Below are positions 5,216-24,984 of a DNA stretch of 32,000 nt, in pieces. The stretch's first letter is position 1. Every line of letters begins with the position of its first letter. The notes under the pieces were generated by a model that did no database searches, was not told the DNA's origin, and saw only the letters and a list, made by a program, of their open reading frames with translations. The position numbers were made by a program, and so were the translations under genes. The stretch comes from Candidatus Nanoclepta minutus (GTDB lineage Archaea > Nanobdellota > Nanobdellia > Nanobdellales > Nanobdellaceae): assembly GCA_003568775.1 (NCBI GenBank), contig MWMI01000004.1, forward strand, positions 43,389-75,388, written 5' to 3'.

Positions 5216-5419
5216 ATGGGTGCAGGTGACCTACTACCTGAAGTAAAAGCCAGGTTATTTAATAATATATTTATATGTAGGAGATGTAAGGCTAGGATCA
5301 GAGCCGATCCTACTAAAGTAAGGGAAGGTAAAGTTAGGTGCAGGAGATGTGGATCAAAAAATTTGAGACCAAAGAAACAAGTGATATCTTTAGTGGGAGG
5401 CAGTAGTGGAGGCAAATGA
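5216..5419 (+). CDS. rpl40e: 50S ribosomal protein L40e (eL40)
   Basis: The small basic protein has a CRRC...CRRC zinc ribbon (ICRRCKARI...VRCRRCGSKNLRPKK). Confidence 0.9.
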   Translation: MGAGDLLPEVKARLFNNIFICRRCKARIRADPTKVREGKVRCRRCGSKNLRPKKQVISLVGGSSGGK

Positions 5420-6477
5420 ACCTAAACTCAATTTTTCTTTTAATTTATGTCTTCTTCCTATCCTTAACATTCTATATATTAAAGAAGTTTGGAAAAAATG
5501 TAGAGTATAACATACTCTATAGTATATTTAGGATAGGTGATAGGATAGGTTTCTTAGAAAAAATCAGTAAGAGCTTTCTATCAAAGATCTTGGAAATTTT
5601 AGCCATACCTACAGGATTTTTAGCAATGTTTTTTTCGATATACTTTATATTATATGGAATTAAGGCAAAGATACCAACAATAGTTCCAGTAATCCCAGGA
5701 ATTGAGATATATGGAATCCGATTCCCTTTTATAGAAATAATAATAGCAATATTCCTATCTGCCTTGGTCCATGAACTCTCACATGCCCTCCTAGTCCTAA
5801 AGAATAAGCTCAAAATAAAGTCATATGGAATATTCTTCTTAGGTCCCTTTTTAGGTGCATTCGTAGAACCTTCTGAAGATGTATATAGGATAGACAAGAT
5901 AAAGCAGATAGCAATATTTCATGCCGGCATATTAGCAAACCTGTTATTAGCAGTTTTAGTTATCTTGATAGGAAACCTCTTTCATTTCTATTTAGTAAAT
6001 TCGGGAAACATTCAAGTTATAATAGTAGGAAAGGTTCCAAATACTACTGTAGAAAACATTAGTGGTGAGAGACTTCTATACATTAACCAGTTTAAAATAA
6101 ATAGCTTATCCGATATAGAAAAGGCTTTAATGAATTATAGGCCAGGGGATACCATTGAATTGATTACAAATGTCTCTAATTATAGAATAAAATTATCTAA
6201 CAATAATGGAAAGCCTTTTATGGGTCTCTATTTTACTGAAGAAATAAACAATAAATCATACAGATTTATAGTTAATTTACTGTTTTGGATTATGATGATC
6301 AGCTTGGGAATAGGATTGGGAAACGCTCTACCGATCTTTATTTTAGATGGAGGTCAGTCTATGAAAGCCCTTCTAGAGATTATATTTAAAAATGAGGAAG
6401 TTGCCAATAAGCTCTATATCCTCATAAGTTGTCTGGTTATAGCTCTAATAATAGTTAACTTCATTGTTGTATTATGA
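5416..6477 (+). CDS. Site-2 protease family (M50) intramembrane metalloprotease with PDZ-like insert
   Basis: It has HELSHAL (HExxH) in a TM segment and the second motif NALPIFILDGG. A soluble PDZ-like stretch lies between the TM blocks. Confidence 0.85.
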   Translation: MNLNSIFLLIYVFFLSLTFYILKKFGKNVEYNILYSIFRIGDRIGFLEKISKSFLSKILEILAIPTGFLAMFFSIYFILYGIKAKIPTIVPVIPGIEIYGIRFPFIEIIIAIFLSALVHELSHALLVLKNKLKIKSYGIFFLGPFLGAFVEPSEDVYRIDKIKQIAIFHAGILANLLLAVLVILIGNLFHFYLVNSGNIQVIIVGKVPNTTVENISGERLLYINQFKINSLSDIEKALMNYRPGDTIELITNVSNYRIKLSNNNGKPFMGLYFTEEINNKSYRFIVNLLFWIMMISLGIGLGNALPIFILDGGQSMKALLEIIFKNEEVANKLYILISCLVIALIIVNFIVVL

Positions 6478-7614
6478 AAAAAGATGTTTAACTAAGATAG
6501 TTGCATAGCTTCCTTTCTTTAACTTGAAATATATTCTTATTGTTGAATCCTTAATTTCGTATTTAAAGTTTGAGACTTCAGCTATTATCGGCCTATTAAT
6601 GGAATTCAAAGTTAGGGATGGCTTATCCTTAAAATATAATCTGTCTAGCCTTATTTTTTCTTCCATTAATATTTCCTTATAGACTCTCTTAAAATCATCT
6701 TCAATTTTTTCTATATTTAGATCATGTCCAACTGCAGGTAATACTTTACCCCTAATCCTATCAATAAAATCCTTATTTTTTGAAATATACAGATCCTCCA
6801 TTGCAACCTTTATCTTGTATAAGTTATCCCCAAATTCCTTTATATAGTTAGAGAGGACCTTATTCCAAATATAGGATTGATATGAATGTAAGAAGAGCTT
6901 TAAAAGCCTTTTATGAATTACTTTAAAGGCTCTATAATAGTTTCTATCCCTTATAAGATAATTTAAAATACCTAATTCTATATCTAGCCATTTTGGAAAA
7001 TATTTAATTGCTTCTTCAAATTTACCCCAGTTTTCACTTAACCATTTTCTAGCATTTCTTGCAGTAAGGTTTTCGTTTTCTGATTGATATGTCAACAGGA
7101 TTCTTATAGCATTTTCCCAGTTTCTATTTATTATTTCTCTACCAATTAAATGGTTAATATACCTTATATTGCCAAACCTTTGATCATCAAAATAGTTATA
7201 AAAATACTTAGAAAATATGTCCAGGTTTTCCTCAAATTTTTCCATCTCTTCATTCTTTACATCTCTTATAGTTATCTCGAACTCATTTTCGACTATATCC
7301 GATATCCTTAAAGGTTCTTCAAAACTTCCGATATATTTTAGCTTCACGTTACCAAAGTTATATTCATACTTAAAATCCTCCAAACCCTTTATCGCTATAT
7401 ATTGTTCTGAAACAGTTTTCTTATCCTTCTCTCCAGCAAAAAATATCCTTTTCTTTGATATCCTTAAATTCCTTGCAACAAGCCTTATAGCCCTTATTGT
7501 ACTTAAGTTCTTCTTTTTCATTAAAAAATAAGCATATCCTGTTCCAGGAGTCTTAGAATTTAAATCAATTATCTCTCTTACAACAAAATCCTCTGGTCTT
7601 TCTTTTATTTTCAT
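6472..7614 (-). CDS. truD: tRNA pseudouridine synthase TruD/Pus7 family
   Basis: The N-terminus KERPEDFVVREI is the typical TruD opening. Length is 380 aa, and the conserved FGNIRY-type (QRFG) region is present as DDQRFGNIRY. Confidence 0.85.
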   Translation of the reverse strand: MKIKERPEDFVVREIIDLNSKTPGTGYAYFLMKKKNLSTIRAIRLVARNLRISKKRIFFAGEKDKKTVSEQYIAIKGLEDFKYEYNFGNVKLKYIGSFEEPLRISDIVENEFEITIRDVKNEEMEKFEENLDIFSKYFYNYFDDQRFGNIRYINHLIGREIINRNWENAIRILLTYQSENENLTARNARKWLSENWGKFEEAIKYFPKWLDIELGILNYLIRDRNYYRAFKVIHKRLLKLFLHSYQSYIWNKVLSNYIKEFGDNLYKIKVAMEDLYISKNKDFIDRIRGKVLPAVGHDLNIEKIEDDFKRVYKEILMEEKIRLDRLYFKDKPSLTLNSINRPIIAEVSNFKYEIKDSTIRIYFKLKKGSYATILVKHLFS

Positions 7615-8753: not shown

Positions 8754-8790
8754 AGGATTTCTTAAGTATATAAAGAATAATAATATTTAT

Positions 8791-8875
8791 GCCGCGGTGC
8801 CCGAGTGGACCAAGGGGTCTGGCTCGAGACCAGATCCCCGATAAGGGGACCGGGGTTCGAATCCCCGCCGCGGCG
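8791..8875 (+). tRNA. tRNA-Ser (anticodon CGA)
   Basis: I folded the cloverleaf by hand. The acceptor pairs GCCGCGG with CCGCGGC, and the anticodon stem pairs TCTGG with CCAGA around the loop CTCGAGA. A long variable arm pairs CCCC-GATA-GGGG, and the T arm is CGGGG-TTCGAAT-CCCCG. It is 85 nt and class II. Confidence 0.92.
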
Positions 8876-9213
8876 TAAGATTAAACCTCTCTATATTTAT
8901 CTATAAACCTTTTATAAAATTCCCATTATTCATTTGTTAACAAATAGAATTCGAATGGAGAATTAAAGAATTCTTTTATTAATATTCCGAAAACTTCTAA
9001 TTTTTTATCCCTATTTTTAAATTCTTCAGATACTATTGCGATGCCTATATTAGACTAAATAATAGTAACAGATATATAAATAAGTCAAATTATCCTTAAC
9101 TCTAACAGAGTCGATATAAATAAATGCAGCGAGATCAATAATCAAATAAACATTTACTTTTATTAATGGTTTTTGATAGCTCGAAATTATAAATACTATA
9201 CTAAATTACAATT

Positions 9214-15671: not shown

Positions 15672-16199
15672 CTATTTATAAACTGATAATAACTCTAGTA
15701 AAGAATCTTCTAAATCATATATAGCATCTCTTCCCTTAGTAGTAATCAGATTTCCATCAACAACGTAAGGTAAATCTGCAAACCTAACCTTTAGCTTTAA
15801 AACAGTTTTTAAATATTCTGGAAACTCGTTAACGTTAAAAGTAATAGTCTTACCCAATAACAAATCCATCTTAGCAAATGCTATCTGTGCTAATGAAGAT
15901 AAGATAACAGGTTTCTTTGCATAATAGAACCTAGCAAAAATACCTGCAGTTTCATTATTAATGAACTCTTTAAAACCTTTATCAGCAATCATAATTAAAC
16001 TATCAAAAAAGGCTTCCTTTAATAGGAATATTTCTTCCGTTGAGAAATCTGGATAAACCTTTGAACCATATTTAGCAACTGCAACTTTCTTAAATGGTGT
16101 CGCAACATAAACCTTCCCATCTAATATGTCTAAAAAGTTAACCAAATCTTCTTCAGAAAAACCTTCAGTAGGTAATATTATTAAGTGGGATCTTATCAT
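15672..16199 (-). CDS. DJ-1/PfpI-like protein (nucleophile Cys replaced by Ser)
   Basis: The overall pattern matches DJ-1/PfpI: LIILPTEGFSEEDL..., KKPVILSSLAQIAFAKMDLLLGK and VVDGNLITTKG. This is my own by-eye alignment. Confidence 0.5.
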   Translation of the reverse strand: MIRSHLIILPTEGFSEEDLVNFLDILDGKVYVATPFKKVAVAKYGSKVYPDFSTEEIFLLKEAFFDSLIMIADKGFKEFINNETAGIFARFYYAKKPVILSSLAQIAFAKMDLLLGKTITFNVNEFPEYLKTVLKLKVRFADLPYVVDGNLITTKGRDAIYDLEDSLLELLSVYK

Positions 16200-16265: not shown

Positions 16266-17909
16266 ATGGTTTCACTAGAAGAGCTAAGGAAAGAAAATCT
16301 AGGAGAGAAACATAAGGTATTTGAATCTAAAATAATCTTAGATGATCCAAGATATAGGTTAGAAAGCATATACTTTTGGTTATTAGATTTCTTAAGGGAT
16401 GATTTAAAATTAAATGTTTCAAAAATTTCCGATGAATTTGGAGGATCTTTCGGATCAGTTTTCTATACAGATATAGTTAGAAGGGCTCAAAGCATTTTAA
16501 CTACTGCAAGAGAGATTGGAGGTCTATTAAATACGATAATAAAATCTATTGTAGACGTAAGTAACTCTTATAGAACTCTAGTATTCGAAAGATTACATAA
16601 ATTTGAAGATTTAAAATCCGATAATCCAGAGAAATCTTATACAGCATTAAAGGCTTTAAAATCCCTTTGGCTTGATAACGTAGATTCGAGGAAGGGAACA
16701 TATGCTCTCAGGAACTTGATTAAAGCAGGATATTCAACAGTTATCGATCTATTTTTATTAGCGGAAGATGGAGAAAAACTAAATGAACTTATATCTAAAG
16801 GAATTGCAAACAAAAGTATCCTAAACCATCCATCCTATAGGGAGATATCTTACTATGAAAAGAATAAAATTGTTAATGAAAGAGTTATATCTTTAGTAAA
16901 AACTAGATTAGCGGAGTTCTATGGTTGGCTAGAGGAATCTGAAAAGTATTTTAAGGAGAGAGCAAAATATTTAAAAGCTTACTTATTACATCAAGTAAAT
17001 TCCCTAATTTATTATTTAGAAATTGCTAAACCATACTTCAAAGCTGCAAGAGCTTTAAAACAGAAGGAATATAATATTCCAGATATAGTAAAAGGTTTCG
17101 AATCAGCAATAATTGAGATAACATTATTTGCAACCGATAAAGAGAAAGAATTAACAGAATGGGACAAAGATAAGAAAGATTTTATTAAAAAGAAATATAT
17201 ACCCTTATTCGAAGTAAACATAATAGCGAGGGTTAGACCAACACTACAGGCTATTTCCGTTGAAAGGACAGCCATGTATACATACATAGGAAGGATAGAC
17301 ATAGAGTATAGAGCATACGTCTTAACTAGGGAGGAATATGATGAGCTAGTAGCTAATAAGGAAATAGAGGATATCTTATATATACAAGGGATGACCGAAA
17401 CCTTCTTAGAAGGGATTACAGACGTTATATGCAACGTATACCTATATGAAAAAGTTATTTCTAATAGTAAGTTATTGGAAACTGCGAAGAAATTCCTAAA
17501 TAAGGATGAAATAACTAGTGAGAGGGATATTGTTTGGACTAAAGAACTAGTAAAAGAGCTAGAAAAAGTTGATAAGAATTTTTTAAAGGGATTGGAATGG
17601 ATAAATAAATATTTACCTTCTAAAGAGGAATTAGAAAAAAAGGAAGAAAAGAAAGAGGAAGAGAAAAAGAAAGAAAATACAATAAGCCTTATCTTCCCAA
17701 TAGCTAAACCCGCTGCTGATATATTCAAGAGCCTATTATATAATATATTTGAATTTATAGTAACCTATGGGAAGGATATATCAAACATAAGGTATTCTAC
17801 TTCAAAGAAAAAATTGGAAAAGGAAAGGGGAGATTTCATAGATGATGTAAAGAAAAAAGCTTGGCTAATATTCAATACCTCAAAGAAAAGCTTTGGTCTT
17901 GTAGCTTAA
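16266..17909 (+). CDS. Hypothetical protein, 547 aa, helical with a K/E-rich linker
   Basis: It is a long clean ORF with a verified ATG. I recognise no P-loop, TM segment, signal peptide or known motif. A K/E low-complexity tract is encoded at nt 17624-17678. Its stop lies 1 nt before the next ATG. Confidence 0.7.
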   Translation: MVSLEELRKENLGEKHKVFESKIILDDPRYRLESIYFWLLDFLRDDLKLNVSKISDEFGGSFGSVFYTDIVRRAQSILTTAREIGGLLNTIIKSIVDVSNSYRTLVFERLHKFEDLKSDNPEKSYTALKALKSLWLDNVDSRKGTYALRNLIKAGYSTVIDLFLLAEDGEKLNELISKGIANKSILNHPSYREISYYEKNKIVNERVISLVKTRLAEFYGWLEESEKYFKERAKYLKAYLLHQVNSLIYYLEIAKPYFKAARALKQKEYNIPDIVKGFESAIIEITLFATDKEKELTEWDKDKKDFIKKKYIPLFEVNIIARVRPTLQAISVERTAMYTYIGRIDIEYRAYVLTREEYDELVANKEIEDILYIQGMTETFLEGITDVICNVYLYEKVISNSKLLETAKKFLNKDEITSERDIVWTKELVKELEKVDKNFLKGLEWINKYLPSKEELEKKEEKKEEEKKKENTISLIFPIAKPAADIFKSLLYNIFEFIVTYGKDISNIRYSTSKKKLEKERGDFIDDVKKKAWLIFNTSKKSFGLVA

Positions 17910-17910
17910 A

Positions 17911-19923
17911 ATGGAAGAGGTATTCGGTAGAAAACAAGGTACTTCAACGAACATATCTTTAATAAACCAGTTAAAAGAACTGGAGAATAAGATAAGGCTA
18001 GGTTATCCTGCAGTCGAAATTGGAGTTGCAACTTTCGGACAATGGGAAGCCATACCAAAAGTTATATGGGAAGATATAGCAAGAAAGGCAAGGATAAACA
18101 AAATAGATCTATCCCTACATGCTCCAGTGAGCGTGGAGGGTCAACTATCTACAGCACAGTTTCCAATAATAAGTGGAATAGAATTTAAAGGACAGGCTGC
18201 ATTAATAAGCGAATCTTCGAAGAAAAAAGTATCCCAAGAACTAAAGGAAATATTGGATACTGCTGCAAACTTAGGTAAAATATACGGAGAGAACATAAAA
18301 GTAACTATGCACGTTACATCTGGCTTAGGCGAAACTATATGGAGTAAAGAATATGAAGATCACCTAAAGGATTATCTAAGAAAAAATAATGAAAAATTTG
18401 AAGATTTAAAGAAAAAACTTCTAGATTTAGGAATAATAAATAAAGAAGAATATCAAAAAATTAAGGATCCGGAAGATTTACCTTCATGGGTCTATGCGGT
18501 AAGTAGCGGTATAACAATAGAAGTACCTGGAGGACATGCCTTAATAAACATAGAGGATATTAGGGATAGAAGGTATATAACTCAAAGATTGGAGAGTTTA
18601 AGAGAAAAATTGGGAACAGAAAAATTTGAGGAAACTATCGTAGATAGGATTTATAACTTGAACGAAGATTACTGGAATAAATTTTTTATTGATATAAATA
18701 GAGCCTTTTATTTAATTACGAAGGATGTTACAAACATAGAAAAGACTTTCCCTTTAAAACAAGACTATCAAGCTGGAGAATTCTTAACTTACTTAAAGAG
18801 CCTGAAGGATAAGCTAAACATACTTTCTAACTCTATAGACACTTACCTATACCACGTAAAGGAAAAAGGAAAAATAGACAATATAAAACATACTTTAGAG
18901 CTCTATAATAAGATTAACGATCTAAAGAGTAAGATAGAAAACTTTGAGAAAAATCTGTTTAATTTATATGAAAAATACAAGAGTCTAACGGATTATGACT
19001 TAAGAAAGGAGTTCAGAAACTTGTTAAATGAAAGTAAAGTTTTAGAAGAAGTTAGGGATCTCGTATCGGGAAACGGTAGAATAGTGTTTAACTTAGCTTT
19101 AGAAGAAATGAACAAGAATAAAGTACCGGTAATAAAACCCTTTCAAGAGGTAGCATTAAGTTCTGCTGTAGATGTAGTAAAGAGAGGTATAGAGGCCTTC
19201 TTAGAAGATGTTAAGAAAGATAAAGAGAAATTTGAAAGGATTGAGGAGATATTTCCAAAGCTATTGTTTGAACATATTTATCCAGAAGATATTGGATCTA
19301 GACCAGATATGCTAATAAAGTTTATAGATAAAAGTAGGAAAGCTCTAATAGAAACATTAGAAAAATATCCAGAAATTAAAGAAAAAATTATAAAGAAATA
19401 TGGAAACTTGGAAAAGTTTTCAGATGAGATAATAGGAGTAACCTTAGACATAGCTCACCTGAAGTTATTTGAAAGGTATGGATATAGTAAAGAAGATATA
19501 CTCCAGTGGGAGAGGAAACTGAAACCATACATAAAGCATATCCATGTATCGGAATCCAAGGGAGGAATGGATACCCATATTCCGCTGGGAATGGAAGGTG
19601 ATGAAATAATAAAAGCAGAGATAGAAGAACTAAAAGATCTATTGGCAAAGGAAGGTATATCCGTAATACATGAAGCAGGCGGATGGTATACTGGAAGATT
19701 CTATGAAGAATTGGGATCCGAATATTCTTACTTTATTTATAAAACCCTACCATACAATCTATACTCTATTTCCGATATATATTCTCAGAGCTTCCTACCA
19801 ACATACTATGAGAACATATACTTCTCTGGAATGCCGACCGTCTTTGACTATACAACTGGCTTTCTAGCATTACCATTAGACCTAGGTAGCAGAAGGGAAA
19901 GACAAGAACAGTCTAGTTATTAA
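17911..19923 (+). CDS. Endonuclease IV / xylose-isomerase-like TIM-barrel protein split by a ~300-aa helical insertion
   Basis: Candidate metal-ligand motifs occur in the canonical order. They are LSLHAP (H70), VTMHVTSG (H134), ITIEVPGG (E204) or LLFEH (E454), LDIAH (D513/H516), HIHVSESKG (H545), MDTH (D554/H556) and VIHEAG (E588). A K/E/L/N-rich helical region spans about aa 215-500. The C-terminal tail is rich in Tyr. Confidence 0.65.
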   Translation: MEEVFGRKQGTSTNISLINQLKELENKIRLGYPAVEIGVATFGQWEAIPKVIWEDIARKARINKIDLSLHAPVSVEGQLSTAQFPIISGIEFKGQAALISESSKKKVSQELKEILDTAANLGKIYGENIKVTMHVTSGLGETIWSKEYEDHLKDYLRKNNEKFEDLKKKLLDLGIINKEEYQKIKDPEDLPSWVYAVSSGITIEVPGGHALINIEDIRDRRYITQRLESLREKLGTEKFEETIVDRIYNLNEDYWNKFFIDINRAFYLITKDVTNIEKTFPLKQDYQAGEFLTYLKSLKDKLNILSNSIDTYLYHVKEKGKIDNIKHTLELYNKINDLKSKIENFEKNLFNLYEKYKSLTDYDLRKEFRNLLNESKVLEEVRDLVSGNGRIVFNLALEEMNKNKVPVIKPFQEVALSSAVDVVKRGIEAFLEDVKKDKEKFERIEEIFPKLLFEHIYPEDIGSRPDMLIKFIDKSRKALIETLEKYPEIKEKIIKKYGNLEKFSDEIIGVTLDIAHLKLFERYGYSKEDILQWERKLKPYIKHIHVSESKGGMDTHIPLGMEGDEIIKAEIEELKDLLAKEGISVIHEAGGWYTGRFYEELGSEYSYFIYKTLPYNLYSISDIYSQSFLPTYYENIYFSGMPTVFDYTTGFLALPLDLGSRRERQEQSSY

Positions 19924-19953: not shown

Positions 19954-21315
19954 ATGTCATGGATAGATAAGATTCTACAGTATTTACCTTCAGTAAAACC
20001 ACCTTATACACACCTCACTCCGAAGGAAAGACTGAAAAATACGATAATTGTAATTGCTATTTATTCTCTATTGAGTTCCATTCCCATATTTGGGATATCG
20101 CAGAAAGTTAGCCAGAGGTTTATAGAATTCATGTGGATATTTGGGTCCCATCTAGGTACCCTAGCTACAATAGGTGTAACACCTGTAATATTGGCGGGTC
20201 TATTCCTACAGCTCATGATCTTCAGTGGAGTATTGGGATTGGACATATACAGCGAAGAGGGAAGGAAGAAATACGATTCGTACTATAAATTACTTGCGAT
20301 AGTTTTTCTAATACTTCAATCCCTATCCTTTATGCTATCCGGAAACATAATACCTGACTATAATTTACCTATCCCTATTTGGGCTATATATATAATAATA
20401 TTCCTGCAGTTATTTATGGGCGGTTTACTTATAATCTTATTAGACGACTTTTCACTAAAATATGGATTGACTTCAGGTATAAACCTAATTATATTTGTAT
20501 CTATCTCTATGTCCATAGCATTAAGGATATTCAACCCTATCCCATTACCGCAATACATCACATATGGACTATATTTCCCATCCGGTCTAATTCCACAGGC
20601 TATCTTAAGTTTCATCAATGGAAACTTTAGCTTAGCTATGGGTTACACTCTAGTAGTAATATTAACTTTTGCCGTATTAGCCCTAGTTACATACCTACAG
20701 TCTATACAAATAGAGATTCCACTGATTTACATAAACATAGGTGGGAGAGTGATGAAGTATCCCATAAACCTTCTATATACATCCGTTATACCAGCCATAT
20801 TCTTATACGGAATACTGATTTGGATCAGGGGAATATTCGAGAGGAATCCAAACTCTATATTATATAGGATCTTGACTCCACCAAACCTTACCATTAACCT
20901 ATCCCAATATGGCCTTTCCTATTTGTTGGATCCAATAAATATATTACATGTAATCGTTTACCTTTCAATATTCATCTTAGGAGGTATCCTATTCTCATAT
21001 TTATGGGTAATATCCGCTGGAATGGATGCAAAGAGTATTGCAAAGCAGCTCCAATCACTTCCAATACAAACCCTGAGGTATAGGGATCCTAGGATAATAG
21101 AAAGTACCCTAGAAAAGTACATTAATCCTCTATCTTATTTCTCAGGTCTGTTAATAGGACTGATAGCAGCTATTTCCGACATATTCGGTATTGCAATTTC
21201 TGGAATCTCATTGTTACTATTAGTAGTAATTGCCGTACAGATATACAACGATATAGAAAGGAACGGAGCAATTCCATACGTACCTTTGGTAGGTAAATAT
21301 CTCTCAAAGAGATGA
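19954..21315 (+). CDS. secY: Preprotein translocase subunit SecY
   Basis: The 453-aa product is a polytopic protein with roughly 10 TM segments. It has the archaeal SecY N-terminus (LPSVKPP...ERLKNT) and conserved downstream neighbours. Confidence 0.9.
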   Translation: MSWIDKILQYLPSVKPPYTHLTPKERLKNTIIVIAIYSLLSSIPIFGISQKVSQRFIEFMWIFGSHLGTLATIGVTPVILAGLFLQLMIFSGVLGLDIYSEEGRKKYDSYYKLLAIVFLILQSLSFMLSGNIIPDYNLPIPIWAIYIIIFLQLFMGGLLIILLDDFSLKYGLTSGINLIIFVSISMSIALRIFNPIPLPQYITYGLYFPSGLIPQAILSFINGNFSLAMGYTLVVILTFAVLALVTYLQSIQIEIPLIYINIGGRVMKYPINLLYTSVIPAIFLYGILIWIRGIFERNPNSILYRILTPPNLTINLSQYGLSYLLDPINILHVIVYLSIFILGGILFSYLWVISAGMDAKSIAKQLQSLPIQTLRYRDPRIIESTLEKYINPLSYFSGLLIGLIAAISDIFGIAISGISLLLLVVIAVQIYNDIERNGAIPYVPLVGKYLSKR

Positions 21316-21869
21316 TAGAACTTTACGTACTATCCTTTTCTATCCTTATAACTATCGTCAATGAACTATTAAATAGAAAACTGAAGATAAGAGAGACCCA
21401 AAAGGTTATTCAGGAAAAAATAAGGAAAATAGAAAAGATAGATAGAAAAGAGTTACTTGAACTTTATAGGATACAAATGAGGAAGACCCAAATAAGTATG
21501 CTGATAACTTTGTCTCTTTTATTAATATATTTTTTATCCCTACAACCATTTGAAATAACTAAAATAGAGGATAACTCTACAAAGATATACATAAGGAATC
21601 CTTTACTTAGATCCTCAAAATTCTACATACAATCTGAAAACTTTAACGGAATAATAACCCCAAAGGAAGGTATAATAACCTTAAATATAACGGAAAAACC
21701 AAAAATAGATGTAGTTGTACTAACTTTTCCATTTAATATACCAATAATAAACAGGAACTGGATTGGAATTATAGGTTCCTTTATAATCTTTTCAGTAGCC
21801 ATAAACCTGCTTGTATCGATGATAAAAGCTTTAATAAGGTTTCCTAAATTAGAAATTAAGAATGGGTAA
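21312..21869 (+). CDS. DUF106 / archaeal YidC-like (EMC3/TMCO1 family) membrane protein
   Basis: The layout is a TM segment, a charged coiled coil, a second TM segment, then FPFNIPIINRNWIGIIGSFIIFS as a third TM segment. It holds the position next to secY that MJ0480-type proteins occupy in other archaea. Confidence 0.55.
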   Translation: MIELYVLSFSILITIVNELLNRKLKIRETQKVIQEKIRKIEKIDRKELLELYRIQMRKTQISMLITLSLLLIYFLSLQPFEITKIEDNSTKIYIRNPLLRSSKFYIQSENFNGIITPKEGIITLNITEKPKIDVVVLTFPFNIPIINRNWIGIIGSFIIFSVAINLLVSMIKALIRFPKLEIKNG

Positions 21870-22514: not shown

Positions 22515-22530
22515 CATATTCTATAAAAAC

Positions 22531-22602
22531 TGGACCCGCCGGGATTCGAACCCGGGATCTCCGGCTAGCGAGGCCGGCGTCCTGCCACTAGACTACGGGC
22601 CC
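22531..22602 (-). tRNA. tRNA-Ala (anticodon CGC)
   Basis: The reverse complement folds as a cloverleaf. The acceptor pairs GGGCCCG with CGGGTCC and includes the alanine identity pair G3:U70. The anticodon stem pairs CCGGC with GCCGG around the loop CTCGCTA, and the T loop is TTCGAAT. Position 37 is U, which is unusual. Confidence 0.88.
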
Positions 22603-22605
22603 ATA

Positions 22606-22694: not shown

Positions 22695-23156
22695 ATGAGG
22701 GGGTTTAGTACAATAATAGCCAGTGCAATACTGTTCATTGCAGCAGCAGTTGCAGCATATATATTTGTATCTGGAGCTATGGGTAGCTTATCAAACCTTC
22801 AGGGTGCTATGATAGAAAGAGAAAAACTGATTTCTTCAAGGTTACAGTCTGTAATCGATATAGATGCTTGTTCTTATAACAACGCAACAAATATAGCATC
22901 GTTTTATGTTACTAATAGAGGTACTTATCCCCTAAACGCTTCTATGACAAAGATATTCATAAACGGTATTCTATTCAATTCTACAATAGACTTTATTCAG
23001 AAGATATATAATGATCCTGCATGGAACAGGTATGAAACTATTAGGGTTTCCGTTACTCTACCATCTGGCGTTTATCAGGTAAGGGTTGTCTCATCAGTTG
23101 GTTCGTACGATGAAAAAATAGCATATATAACCAATACTTCCTGTAGCGTTTCATGA
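22695..23156 (+). CDS. FlaF/FlaG (ArlF/ArlG)-like protein with an N-terminal TM/class III-like segment
   Basis: MRGFSTIIASAILFIAAAVAAYIFVSG resembles the MGFS... opening of archaeal FlaF. A beta-sandwich-like block follows (SFYVTNRGTYPLNASMTKIFINGILF). Confidence 0.6.
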   Translation: MRGFSTIIASAILFIAAAVAAYIFVSGAMGSLSNLQGAMIEREKLISSRLQSVIDIDACSYNNATNIASFYVTNRGTYPLNASMTKIFINGILFNSTIDFIQKIYNDPAWNRYETIRVSVTLPSGVYQVRVVSSVGSYDEKIAYITNTSCSVS

Positions 23157-23593
23157 GAGGCGATCTATCACAGATATTCGGTGCTATAACGGGCTTTATA
23201 TTAATAATTGTCGTTATTTTAATATTCTCCTACATAACTTCATATAACGTCCAGAACTTCGATAAAATTTTAGAAAAAAACTATGAATTTTATGAAAAGA
23301 GGAGTTTGGAATTAGTGGATTTTTTAAATAATTCCACAAACATATCAAACCCTCTGATAATTATAAAAAATATTGGAAAGGTTTCCTTGGATCCATCATG
23401 CTTCAGTTTATATATTGAGGGTAATAAAATCAACTTTACATATCAGATTAATGAAGTATACCATGATAACCTGCTAAACCCATCCGAAAATGCTGCCTTA
23501 TACTTTAGTTATCCGAATACAGGATGGAAAAAAGTTGTTTTAATAAGTTGTAATGGAAAAAGGTTTGAAACTTTAATATATTTCTATTCATAA
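23153..23593 (+). CDS. FlaG/FlaF-like protein with an N-terminal TM segment
   Basis: It has an MRG start, a hydrophobic helix and LIIIKNIGKVSLDPSCFSLYIEGNKINF, matching the N.G..L...I.G pattern of FlaF/G domains. Its start overlaps the upstream stop as ATGA. Confidence 0.5.
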   Translation: MRGDLSQIFGAITGFILIIVVILIFSYITSYNVQNFDKILEKNYEFYEKRSLELVDFLNNSTNISNPLIIIKNIGKVSLDPSCFSLYIEGNKINFTYQINEVYHDNLLNPSENAALYFSYPNTGWKKVVLISCNGKRFETLIYFYS

Positions 23594-24984
23594 TGAGAGG
23601 CTTTGAGGAAGTAATGTATGCAGCACTAGCTTTGATGGTTTCTGTAATAGTTACCTATATTTTTATCTCAAATACAAACTTTCCAACTTATTCCGTATCA
23701 AAACCTATTGAATCTATGAAAACATCCCTCGAACTAGTTGATTATGGAATAGTTTACCCAAACACATTAGTAATATATTTAAGACCCACTTCACCAGTAA
23801 ACATCTCAAACGTTATAATCTATATAAACAGACAAAAGGCAATAATAAAAAAGATTGGGAATACACCTGGAGATATTGTAGATCCTAACAAAGGGGATTT
23901 AATGATGGTCTCGTTGGATAACTTTCAAGGCAATAGCGTAGATATATTTGTTTCGGGATATAACCTTCAGTCTAGAAGCTTTAGCATAAACCTGGAAGGA
24001 AAGAAACCCATTACTCCTACAAATATAGCTACATACTTCTATAGAATTCCAATAACAATAAAAGAGAATTCTGGAAATAATTTAACGGATTATCAGGTTA
24101 ATGTAATAGTAAACACCCAGAACTTGATTTTACAAGGAAAAATGAGATATGATTGTGGAGATATTAGGTTTACATACGTTTATCCAAACGGAACAGAGGT
24201 TAAAATAACTTACTGGATAGAATCGGGATGTAATACTCAAAATACAAAGATTTGGGTAAAGGTTCCATCTATTTCAGCAAATGGAAATGCTACTATTTAT
24301 ATTTATTATGGGAATCCTTTTGCAACAAGTGGGAGTAATCCAAATAGCGTATTTATATACTTTGACACTTTTGATGATCTTTCAAAATGGTCAACTTATA
24401 GGGGAAGCTCATGTACCTCAATAAATATATACAACTTTAATGGTAACAATGTTGTGGGTCTTAGTGTCTCTGGGGGAACTTCAGATTCCAGAACGTGGTG
24501 TATAATATATAATCTAACTGTTTCCCTTCCCAGTTCCTTTAAAATTGACGTAGACGTTTATACAGATAATATTGTTGATACTTTACCTTACTTCAACAGC
24601 ATAACTGGTCCTTTCTATGTCTTTAGATTTGATGCAAGAGGTAGCTATTATGATCTCATTGGATATTATCCTGCGGGAGCTACCTCTACACAAGTAATTG
24701 CATCTACATCAATAGTTTCTTCAAAAAACACATGGTATCATATGCAAATTATAAGGTTCCCAAATGGTACATGGTATCTATACAAGGGAGGTGATTTATA
24801 CTCCCTAGGAACTCTCGAAGCAAGCGTTACACATACAACAACAACTTCTGGTTATTTGGGTCTTACCGGAGACGGAGCTACTGGAACAACCTACTTCGAT
24901 AATTTGATTGTCAGAAAGTATACCTCCCCAGAACCTTCTGTTAGTTTAGGAAATGAAGAAACAACTTTCTATTATCCATCCTAA
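23593..24984 (+). CDS. Pilin/FlaF-like N-terminus fused to DUF2341 and a concanavalin/LamG-like domain
   Basis: It has an MRG start and a TM helix. The DUF2341 signature is YRIPITIKENSGNNLTDYQVNV...DIRFTY...ITYWIE...KIWVKVPSISANGNATIYIYYGNP. The C-terminal beta-rich region ends in YFDNLIVRKY. Confidence 0.7.
   Translation: MRGFEEVMYAALALMVSVIVTYIFISNTNFPTYSVSKPIESMKTSLELVDYGIVYPNTLVIYLRPTSPVNISNVIIYINRQKAIIKKIGNTPGDIVDPNKGDLMMVSLDNFQGNSVDIFVSGYNLQSRSFSINLEGKKPITPTNIATYFYRIPITIKENSGNNLTDYQVNVIVNTQNLILQGKMRYDCGDIRFTYVYPNGTEVKITYWIESGCNTQNTKIWVKVPSISANGNATIYIYYGNPFATSGSNPNSVFIYFDTFDDLSKWSTYRGSSCTSINIYNFNGNNVVGLSVSGGTSDSRTWCIIYNLTVSLPSSFKIDVDVYTDNIVDTLPYFNSITGPFYVFRFDARGSYYDLIGYYPAGATSTQVIASTSIVSSKNTWYHMQIIRFPNGTWYLYKGGDLYSLGTLEASVTHTTTTSGYLGLTGDGATGTTYFDNLIVRKYTSPEPSVSLGNEETTFYYPS

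Follow-up and report, generated by a model that had tools for sequence, protein, structure and literature searches.

Gene layout

The stretch of DNA analysed here (the window) comprises 32,000 nucleotides of contig MWMI01000004.1 of Candidatus Nanoclepta minutus, and this account concerns two long open reading frames (ORFs) in it, which are called P1 and P2. Their translations are exact matches to the proteins RIB35239.1 (BXU00_02845) and RIB35240.1 (BXU00_02850) of this organism. The two genes and the boundary between them are positioned as follows.

16266..17909, + strand: P1 (BXU00_02845), 547 aa, ATG start
17911..19923, + strand: P2 (BXU00_02850), 670 aa, ATG start
17907..17913, + strand: P1/P2 junction with a 1-nt gap, where TAA (17907-17909) is followed by a single a and by ATG at 17911; it reads gtagcTTAaATGgaag

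The separation by a single nucleotide, already described in an earlier note on this DNA, was confirmed and is consistent with translational coupling of the two predicted genes. The same spacing recurs in L004 and L005, the Nanopusillaceae loci nearest to this one, and a spacing of 22-25 nt is found in Nanobdella and its relatives. In Nanoarchaeota archaeon NZ13-N, BA065_01195 is 100% identical to P1 over its full length and the P2 counterpart BA065_01200 belongs to the same 90%-identity cluster as P2. The window has a G+C content of 31%, and simple arithmetic on its composition gives about 0.078 stops per random codon, so that an open frame of 547 codons would occur by chance with a probability of about 1e-19. 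Homologues support both P1 and P2 as real genes.

Linkage of P1 and P2

The association of the two genes was surveyed from both sides. On the P1 side 80 species-genome loci were inspected, of which 69 were informative and 11 lay on contigs too short to tell. P2 was present downstream in 55 of the 69 informative loci (80%). In 7 loci a P2-like gene was adjacent, that is within 150 nt, in 41 loci one ORF of about 160-250 aa lay between P1 and P2, in 6 loci P2 was located further downstream and in 1 locus it was inverted. No P2 was seen in 14 loci despite at least 3 kb of downstream sequence. On the P2 side 80 metagenome loci were collected, and P1 was found nearby in 47 of the 53 that were informative, upstream and on the same strand in 46 and divergent in 1; the other 6 had no P1 within the available upstream sequence. 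Each locus gave a single P1 match.

The linkage spans deep divergence in both search directions, with P1 identities down to 26-30% and P2 identities down to 18-24%. Intergenic distances in the operon are short, and overlaps of 4 nt and 8 nt are frequent. As judged from gene order, P1 and P2 are a functional unit and form the constant core of a conserved, tightly packed Nanoarchaeota operon. The arrangement with only these two genes, found in 5 of 5 informative Nanopusillaceae loci, is the reduced Nanopusillaceae form of this operon. The proposal that the pair is a functional unit is borne out by the two-way linkage over such distances, and the genes are indeed linked in related genomes. The companion statement, that they belong to no conserved archaeal operon, does not hold, since the pair itself is such an operon in Nanoarchaeota.

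The P1 family

A word-indexed search with P1 recovered 40 relatives. When a hidden Markov model (HMM) of the family was run against 1.84 billion cluster representatives, 922 clusters, defined at 50% identity, were retrieved at E ≤1e-3 and 359 at E ≤1e-30, most with lengths of 450-560 aa. A scan of one genome per species, seeded on the P1 motif LE(P/S)IYFWLLDF, found relatives in at least 292 species genomes. In view of these numbers the term orphan, if taken to mean rare, had to be abandoned. The carriers listed are Nanopusillaceae, Woesearchaeota, Pacearchaeota and unclassified Nanoarchaeota, including the cultured Nanobdella aerobiophila and strain YN1, and the family is apparently restricted to Nanoarchaeota-type DPANN archaea. 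Invariant columns number 29 in an alignment of 16 sequences (A5) and 14 in one of 36 sequences (A1). By these counts the P1 family is large and under constraint. The most conspicuous segments of the window protein are the following.

16359..16391, + strand: most conserved motif, LE(P/S)IYFWLLDF, residues 32-42, in which E33, Y36, W38, L40 and D41 are invariant or nearly so
16656..16697, + strand: second motif, LKxxWLDNVDxKRG, residues 131-144, in which L131, W135, V139, D140 and G144 are invariant
17625..17678, + strand: linker of only K and E, EELEKKEEKKEEEKKKEN, residues 454-471
17682..17762, + strand: amphipathic, moderately hydrophobic segment after the linker, residues 473-499, not a transmembrane helix; family consensus NPFxAL..GF

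Family forms of the two motifs include LEPIYFWLLDF and LKxIWLDNVDxKRG. The linker had been noted before with a start one nucleotide off (17624 instead of 17625), and the hydrophobic or amphipathic segment that was said to follow it was found at the residues given above. A K/E-rich segment of low model confidence occurs throughout the P1 family; in the window protein the predicted local distance difference test score (pLDDT) drops below 50 at residues 467-481. The alignment further shows two insertions specific to the Nanopusillaceae, which explain why P1 has 547 aa in the window whereas relatives elsewhere have about 470-500 aa.

No similarity of P1 to a described family was detected. Single-sequence searches of Pfam, NCBIfam and PDB sequences gave zero significant matches, the 36 members of the larger alignment had no Pfam family common to more than 3 of them at E up to 1, and the family profile had 0 matches among PDB sequences at E up to 10. 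The Pfam and NCBIfam scans revealed neither a catalytic signature nor an enzyme family. The AlphaFold2 (AF2) model of P1, with a pLDDT of 83 and a predicted template modelling score (pTM) of 0.64, found no significant neighbour among PDB folds or the viral folds of BFVD, with TM-scores of about 0.1-0.17; its weak, non-significant Foldseek neighbours were adaptor, pore-former and BAR-like helical proteins. The view that P1 lacks a recognisable motif or family was therefore upheld in sequence as well as fold comparisons.

The predicted fold is of the alpha/beta type. The model starts with beta-hairpins, which are followed by two helices of 50-60 residues (65-116 and 205-263), a sheet at residues 281-354 with strands of up to 23 residues, and a C-terminal helical region that follows the disordered K/E linker. 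The earlier description of P1 as largely alpha-helical is thus right about the long helices and incomplete as to the hairpins and the long-strand sheet. The highest 19-residue Kyte-Doolittle means were 1.28 for P1 and 1.09 for P2, which gives no transmembrane segment and no hydrophobic N-terminus in either protein, in agreement with what had been stated for P1, although a signal-peptide predictor was not run. For this reason both proteins are likely to be cytoplasmic.

P1 and P2 are unrelated to each other according to hhalign, and a common origin of P1 and the P2 insert described below was rejected (hhalign probability 0.3%). One P1 relative of 688 aa, P0061, carries a 235-aa N-terminal extension with several cysteines and without a Pfam match, which may be an informative domain fusion.

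Domain architecture of P2

The P2 family was examined with an alignment of 50 members drawn from syntenic loci (A3). A second word-indexed search with the P2 alignment gave no new relatives; relatives were recovered via synteny. The window protein by itself matches PF01261 with 28.8 bits, below the cut-off of 31.1 bits, at E 1.3e-6 and over residues 500-580 only. Across the family, 48 of the 50 members match PF01261 at E ≤0.01, the best at 9.6e-16, and precomputed Pfam assignments place PF01261 on 8 of the 9 P2 homologues found. Searched against the PDB, the family profile found only MJ1311 (3WQO), at E 4.4e-11 and 5.9e-11, with a significant stretch limited to chain residues 180-268 and a weak second stretch at 72-122. 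The AF2 model (pLDDT 72) has seven barrel strands alternating with helices, at residues 34-38, 66-70, 130-134, 450-454, 508-513, 541-546 and 584-587, while the eighth strand falls within the low-confidence tail. P2 can be divided into four parts.

17911..18330, + strand: N-terminal half of the barrel, residues 1-140, with beta1 at 34-38, beta2 at 66-70 (H70) and beta3 at 130-134 (H134)
18331..19245, + strand: helical insert in the beta3-alpha3 loop, residues ~141-445, poorly conserved except N251 and W255
19246..19680, + strand: C-terminal half of the barrel, residues 446-590, with E454, D513, H516, H545, D554, H556 and E588; the part that matches PF01261 and MJ1311
19681..19923, + strand: C-terminal tail rich in Tyr, Phe, Gly and Pro, residues 591-670, pLDDT <50 and predicted to be disordered

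On the strength of these matches P2 is classed as a divergent xylose-isomerase-like, AP_endonuc_2 (PF01261) TIM barrel that is split by a long helical insert. The earlier note had seen an enzyme-like TIM barrel with such an insert, and the PF01261 and MJ1311 matches and the seven-stranded AF2 model are in line with it. The insert measures 263 aa in the window protein and 188-284 aa family-wide when counted over the alignment columns that separate residues 142 and 405 of the window protein. Because it starts directly after the ligand-bearing strand beta3, it lies on the catalytic face of the barrel. The tail is kept across the family with Y618, Y637, F651, P655 and G659, and is a candidate docking segment.

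Putative metal-ligand site of P2

Seven residues of P2, H70, H134, E454, D513, H516, H545 and E588, are invariant in all 50 family members. They include the PF01261 core ligands Glu (beta4, E454), Asp (beta5, D513), His (beta6, H545) and Glu (beta7, E588). A further pair, D554-x-H556, is kept in 37 of the 50, and H-x-E occupies the columns of window residues 554 and 556 in 12-13. The swap has the form FGMEHTELPMG in place of FGFEDSHLPPG; it is coordinated, and two metal-binding side chains are retained. In the AF2 model the ligands are placed at the C-terminal ends of the predicted strands beta2 to beta7.

The nine residues match H69, H109, E145, D179, H182, H216, D229, H231 and E261 of Escherichia coli Nfo (endonuclease IV) in type, order and local motif, a correspondence obtained by manual motif alignment in the absence of a significant sequence alignment. 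These nine Nfo residues are the ligands of its trinuclear Zn site. The Nfo sequence used was validated against 1QTW (650 bits). On this basis we place P2 in the AP_endonuc_2 superfamily, as a divergent protein whose ligand set resembles that of endonuclease IV, and do not file it in the Nfo family. The search for a characterised family with a role independent of a partner returned no confident match, the similarity being at the superfamily level of PF01261 (28.8 against 31.1 bits).

Other genes of the operon

In most genomes outside the Nanopusillaceae (41 of the 80 loci) P1 and P2 are separated by the ORF of about 160-250 aa mentioned above, for instance at 7339-8004 in L001 and 9526-10131 in L002. 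Its product, the middle protein, is highly charged (15% Glu, 11% Lys), has no Cys, has a median isoelectric point of 5.2 and is apparently disordered. Its sequence is barely conserved, the exceptions being an LE motif in the interior, Tyr residues here and there and, at the C-terminus, a basic K-K-Y patch. A hidden or fused copy in Nanoclepta was not found when an HMM of 47 middle proteins was compared with the six-frame translation of the window. The middle gene is always directly upstream of P2. Where foreign genes intrude (a restriction-modification system, a peptidase U32, TrmB, a methyltransferase), they separate P1 from the middle gene, and the middle gene is never split off from P2; these intruders are of diverse kinds and offer no hint of a function. 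Insertions are tolerated at the P1/middle-gene junction only, as in L079, from single-cell genome SCGC AAA011-G17, where an NgoPII-type restriction endonuclease and a C5 cytosine methylase (5382-7294) lie between P1 and the middle gene/P2.

In each of the 7 genomes that lack the middle gene the P2 insert has 250-284 aa, and a length of at least 250 aa is reached in 3 of the 43 others (Mann-Whitney p 6e-5), a statistic that probably reflects only about two independent events (losses). This suggests that a longer P2 insert may compensate for, or may have absorbed, the function of the missing middle protein.

Two further genes recur. Directly downstream of P2, 40 loci have a nucleotidyltransferase of about 285 aa of the MNT/Pol-beta type (PF01909/PF18765) with a helical C-terminal half, such as that at 12586-13401 in L002. 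To call the system two-component was accordingly too narrow: most relatives have the third, acidic and disordered gene and frequently also the downstream nucleotidyltransferase. In 30 loci a protein of about 126 aa is encoded divergently and directly upstream of P1 (5416-5796, - strand, in L072). This protein is basic at its N-terminus and of low complexity in the middle, carries a heptad-like segment RIDxxxxRxExIERKIDRIE in its C-terminal part and has no Pfam match. Its gene is often located beside those for signal peptidase II (LspA, PF01252, 26 loci) and glutamyl-tRNA synthetase (GluRS, 28 loci), which are likewise upstream of P1 and divergent. In general the neighbours of the operon are information-processing or housekeeping genes, among them RNA polymerase, L7Ae, GluRS, SecY and L34e.

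Surroundings in the window

On the upstream side of P1 the window has a divergent gene and a spacer.

15672-16199, - strand: DJ-1/PfpI-family gene (PF01965, E 5e-9), sharing a 66-nt spacer with P1
16200..16265, no strand assigned: A+T-rich spacer of 66 nt between the divergent DJ-1/PfpI gene and P1, with a TATA-like aatataatattttta some 30-44 nt before the ATG of P1

The spacer is the presumed promoter region. A gene of the DJ-1/PfpI type with the same size and orientation stands beside P1 in other Nanopusillaceae (6 loci) and not in Woesearchaeota or Pacearchaeota. On the P2 side the pair is flanked by SecY (PF00344, E 4e-47), and L34e and a KOW-domain (L14e-like) protein are also found there. 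The 66-nt divergent spacer to a DJ-1-like gene and the position of SecY on the other side were thus as had been described. Three glycosyltransferase genes and one FkbM methyltransferase gene are found upstream of the pair; this glycosyltransferase/DJ-1 context is not conserved in other lineages. Conversely, the neighbours that are conserved in other lineages, namely the nucleotidyltransferase (MNT), the ~126-aa protein, LspA and GluRS, are all missing from the window.

Some other features of the window were recorded. A 185-aa ORF between SecY and L34e (21312-21869, + strand) encodes hydrophobic segments and a K/E/R-rich helical stretch and has no Pfam match at E ≤0.001; this is a slot which we take to be often occupied by a DUF106/Oxa1-like membrane protein in archaeal spc-type clusters. 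An 87-nt tRNA-Ser(CGA) was predicted by ARAGORN at 8790-8876 (+ strand) and was not reported by the Rfam tRNA model at its gathering score. The other RNAs are a 5S rRNA (2651-2765, + strand) and a tRNA-Ala(CGC) (22530-22603, - strand). Just past the ribosomal protein genes, at 22695-24984 (+ strand), there are genes for an archaellin-family protein (PF01917, 153 aa) and a DUF2341 protein (463 aa) together with an unannotated ORF of 146 aa. The group has the look of a small surface-filament cluster within a reduced genome.

Proposed function and alternatives

The conservation, linkage and predicted structures described above suggest a possible mode of action for the pair. We propose that P1 and P2 form a cytoplasmic complex specific to Nanoarchaeota-type DPANN archaea, in which P2 is a multinuclear-metal phosphoesterase and P1 its non-catalytic partner, possibly acting on nucleic acid; the chances that this proposal is right or wrong seem to us evenly balanced. 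P1 and P2 would be the two constant subunits, expressed from one operon in organisms recorded as Nanopusillaceae, Woesearchaeota and Pacearchaeota. P2 would be the catalytic subunit. Its complete endonuclease-IV-type set of nine predicted ligands makes a multinuclear-metal phosphoesterase the likeliest identity, ahead of a sugar isomerase. The helical arm on its catalytic face could gate or recognise the substrate or dock the partner. P1 would bind P2, possibly via this arm or via the conserved aromatic tail, and would have a targeting or regulatory role. The acidic, disordered protein of about 200 aa would join P1 and P2 in most lineages; the Nanopusillaceae have lost the middle gene and have longer P2 inserts. 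The most probable class of substrate is nucleic acid, for example damaged DNA ends, apurinic/apyrimidinic (AP) sites or RNA ends, as the endonuclease-IV-type site, the nearby information-processing genes and the adjoining nucleotidyltransferase suggest. The guess of the earlier note, a scaffold plus a phosphoesterase or isomerase, fits this evidence. Its broader suggestion of an undescribed system is largely upheld, the system being real, conserved and wider than was assumed, with the labels orphan, two-component and without conserved operon in need of correction.

Several observations weigh against the proposed phosphoesterase complex. About 20% of the P1 loci (14) have no P2 within 6 kb, even if an HMM is used to search for divergent P2 genes. 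The AF2 model of P2 is poor at residues 548-563 and 587-670, and its best PDB neighbours by Foldseek, D-tagatose/D-psicose 3-epimerases, are non-significant (E at least 0.09). Comparison of an insert-spliced P2 barrel profile with E. coli Nfo by hhalign gave a probability of 1.3%, and no nfo model was found among the NCBIfam matches of spliced P2 barrels at E up to 1; these barrels weakly match sugar epimerases, isomerases and dehydratases as well as one phosphodiesterase, CbiR. Next to the first ligand E. coli Nfo has Y72 and L73, its DNA-intercalating residues. By manual motif alignment these positions correspond to P72 and V73 in the window P2 and are not conserved, the first-ligand motif being H70-A71-P72-V73 and the family consensus H-A/G-P-x-x-D, with no aromatic or Leu pair. 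The window also lacks the nucleotidyltransferase and the rest of the conserved neighbours.

The main rival is sugar chemistry, in which P2 would be an isomerase, epimerase or dehydratase acting on a sugar or sugar phosphate in carbohydrate or cell-envelope metabolism and P1 an unrelated structural or regulatory partner. Such chemistry is the commonest among proteins that match PF01261, NCBIfam matches the spliced barrels best to fructoselysine 3-epimerase (10 of 14 barrels, 3.5e-8), hydroxypyruvate isomerase, IolO, IolE and psicose epimerase, the top Foldseek neighbours have probabilities of 0.8-0.96, and glycosyltransferase and FkbM genes lie upstream in the window. However, all these matches are weak and confined to the C-terminal half of the barrel, elsewhere the glycosyltransferase context is replaced by GluRS, LspA, RNA polymerase and MNT genes, and P2 keeps five further invariant or co-varying His/Asp ligands typical of trinuclear phosphoesterases. 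Sugar chemistry is therefore considered unlikely, and the role in cell-surface sugars that had been suggested earlier finds no support in a glycosyltransferase/DJ-1 context that is not conserved. If instead P2 were the base-excision-repair endonuclease IV of the lineage, an Nfo orthologue with an insert, P1 would be linked to it only by the operon. This would account for the conservation of all nine Nfo ligand residues and agrees with the label AP endonuclease given to the Nanobdella orthologue in GenBank and with the listing of MJ1311 as a predicted EndoIV homologue of Methanocaldococcus jannaschii (PMC2770678, Table 1). Yet MJ1311 itself was deposited as uncharacterised, there is no profile-level similarity to Nfo and no NCBIfam nfo match, the positions of Y72 and L73 are not conserved, and an insert of 188-284 aa would sit on the DNA-binding face of the barrel. 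The two-way synteny with P1 (80-89%) over deep divergence also speaks against an unrelated neighbour, and we regard orthology to Nfo as quite improbable.

A mainly structural pair can be envisaged too, with long helices that polymerise into a cytoskeletal, membrane-associated or host-contact assembly and a barrel that is accessory or degenerate. The very long helices (P1 65-116 and 205-263, and a P2 insert of about 300 aa), the resemblance of the amphipathic P1 segment after its flexible K/E linker to membrane-targeting tails, the adaptor, pore-former and BAR-like character of the weak Foldseek neighbours, and the apparent restriction to Nanoarchaeota-type DPANN, whose cultured members are ectosymbionts, all point in that direction. 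Against this, a ligand set that is invariant in 50 of 50 members implies that catalysis is under selection, transmembrane segments and a hydrophobic, signal-like N-terminus are lacking, all fold matches of P1 are non-significant (TM-scores ~0.1-0.17), and the gene context is one of housekeeping rather than surface genes, which makes a mainly structural role doubtful in a high degree. The least probable explanation, a fortuitous adjacency or a mobile, viral or defence cassette, for instance one related to HEPN-MNT toxin-antitoxin systems, was disfavoured already. It could draw on the MNT-type nucleotidyltransferase after P2 in 40 loci, with its matches to generic candidate models of PADLOC (5.8e-10 at best), and on the restriction-modification system inserted in the L079 cluster. 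However, the linkage is conserved in both directions, with a single P1 match per locus and in a housekeeping context, and the MNT gene is absent from the window. No P1 relative was found in IMG/VR; PADLOC and PHROG models gave no matches to the window P1 and P2 or to the P2 and middle protein of L002, and the P1 relative of L002 gave one borderline match (phrog_25091, E 0.0094, function unknown). The G+C content of the P1-P2 region equals that of the window. By these searches the pair is not viral or defence-related, and a cassette origin has hardly any probability left.

A more far-reaching version of the phosphoesterase complex may be considered, though it is at present unlikely to be correct in full. 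P1, P2 and, where present, the middle protein would be an undescribed, lineage-defining machine of Nanoarchaeota: an endonuclease-IV-like trinuclear-metal nuclease or phosphoesterase with a helical arm that needs a partner of novel fold and acts on DNA or RNA, either that of the cell itself or scavenged from the host. The organisms concerned cannot make nucleotides, which is the context for the scavenging idea.

Significance

Nanoarchaeota-type DPANN archaea have very small genomes. Retention of an operon of 3.6-4.5 kb across such genomes makes a core, lineage-specific task likely. The operon is kept from Nanopusillaceae symbionts, several of them from hot springs, to metagenome-assembled genomes of Woesearchaeota and Pacearchaeota from groundwater and other environments. 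P1 ranks among the larger uncharacterised families of these archaea, as it has no family, PDB or fold match despite some 900 clusters. P2 is an unusual architectural variant of a metalloenzyme fold that is well understood: it combines a full endonuclease-IV-type ligand set with a helical insert on the catalytic face and with an aromatic tail that is conserved and predicted to be disordered. The system is present in a cultured organism, Nanobdella aerobiophila (MJ1_0680 / BBL45824.1), which makes the hypothesis directly testable. Once the substrate is identified, it could become clear how these symbionts maintain nucleic acids or other compounds that contain phosphodiesters, or scavenge them.

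A literature search by the locus tags and accessions of P1 and P2 and by 3WQO found no paper naming these genes; NEQ484, discussed below, was found only in a table of PMC6393860.

Comparison with known systems

The sugar epimerases and isomerases of PF01261 are proteins of about 290 aa with a single metal and without the extra His/Asp ligands. In the D-tagatose/D-psicose 3-epimerases this single metal is held by four ligands (Glu, Asp, His, Glu). These Glu, Asp, His and Glu core ligands are shared with P2, and the best, though weak, NCBIfam and Foldseek matches of P2 are to this group; in contrast to P2, its members have neither the insert nor a P1-like partner. CbiR, the cobamide-remodelling phosphodiesterase (NF041277), was matched weakly by 3 of 14 P2 barrels (1.5e-4). 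It shows that an AP_endonuc_2 barrel can hydrolyse phosphodiesters other than DNA, but the similarity is far below the family threshold, CbiR lacks the insert and the partner, and there is no cobamide context here.

Another arrangement that was considered is that of the MNIO/DUF692 enzymes with a partner of the MbnB-MbnC type. It was rejected, as PF01261 was the only family in Pfam scans of the 50 P2 members and P1 matches nothing. The related idea of an MbnC/TglI-type partner with a Cys-containing precursor was rejected as well, the middle proteins having 0% Cys. A further point counted against the MNIO/DUF692 idea is that many of these lineages are probably anaerobes.

For the other genes of the operon some correspondence may exist with archaeal gene clusters defined by Makarova et al. 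2019 (PMC6393860). Cluster cls.004340 (NEQ484) fits P1, by description alone, in being DPANN-restricted, helical and in a housekeeping context. The DPANN cluster described as MNT fused to HEPN (NEQ050) fits the nucleotidyltransferase downstream of P2 in 40 loci, again when compared by description alone, and the latter may belong to it. That paper draws no link between the NEQ484 and NEQ050 clusters or from them to any TIM-barrel gene.

MJ1311 of M. jannaschii (3WQO), the only solved protein reached by the P2 profile, is a xylose-isomerase-like TIM barrel deposited as an uncharacterized protein. It has in common with P2 the motifs HAP, vvHpG, D-x-G-H and H-x-H-x-x-D-N-x-G-x-x-D-x-H-L-x-x-G-x-G. 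With 293 aa, of which about 90 residues align significantly, it does not have the helical insert and the aromatic C-terminal tail of P2. Since its function is unknown, the match transfers no function to P2. Endonuclease IV (Nfo/Apn1; 1QTW), the trinuclear-Zn AP endonuclease, shares the AP_endonuc_2 TIM barrel and the nine ligand types with P2. Unlike Nfo, which has no partner, P2 possesses an insert of about 260 aa after beta3, a tail of 80 aa and an obligatory-looking partner gene. If the far-reaching version holds, the combination of a nuclease with long helical parts would follow a logic similar to that of the nuclease and coiled coil in Mre11-Rad50, although the parts are unrelated. What is new in comparison with all these systems is an AP_endonuc_2-type metalloenzyme with a unique insertion together with an obligatory-looking partner of unknown fold.

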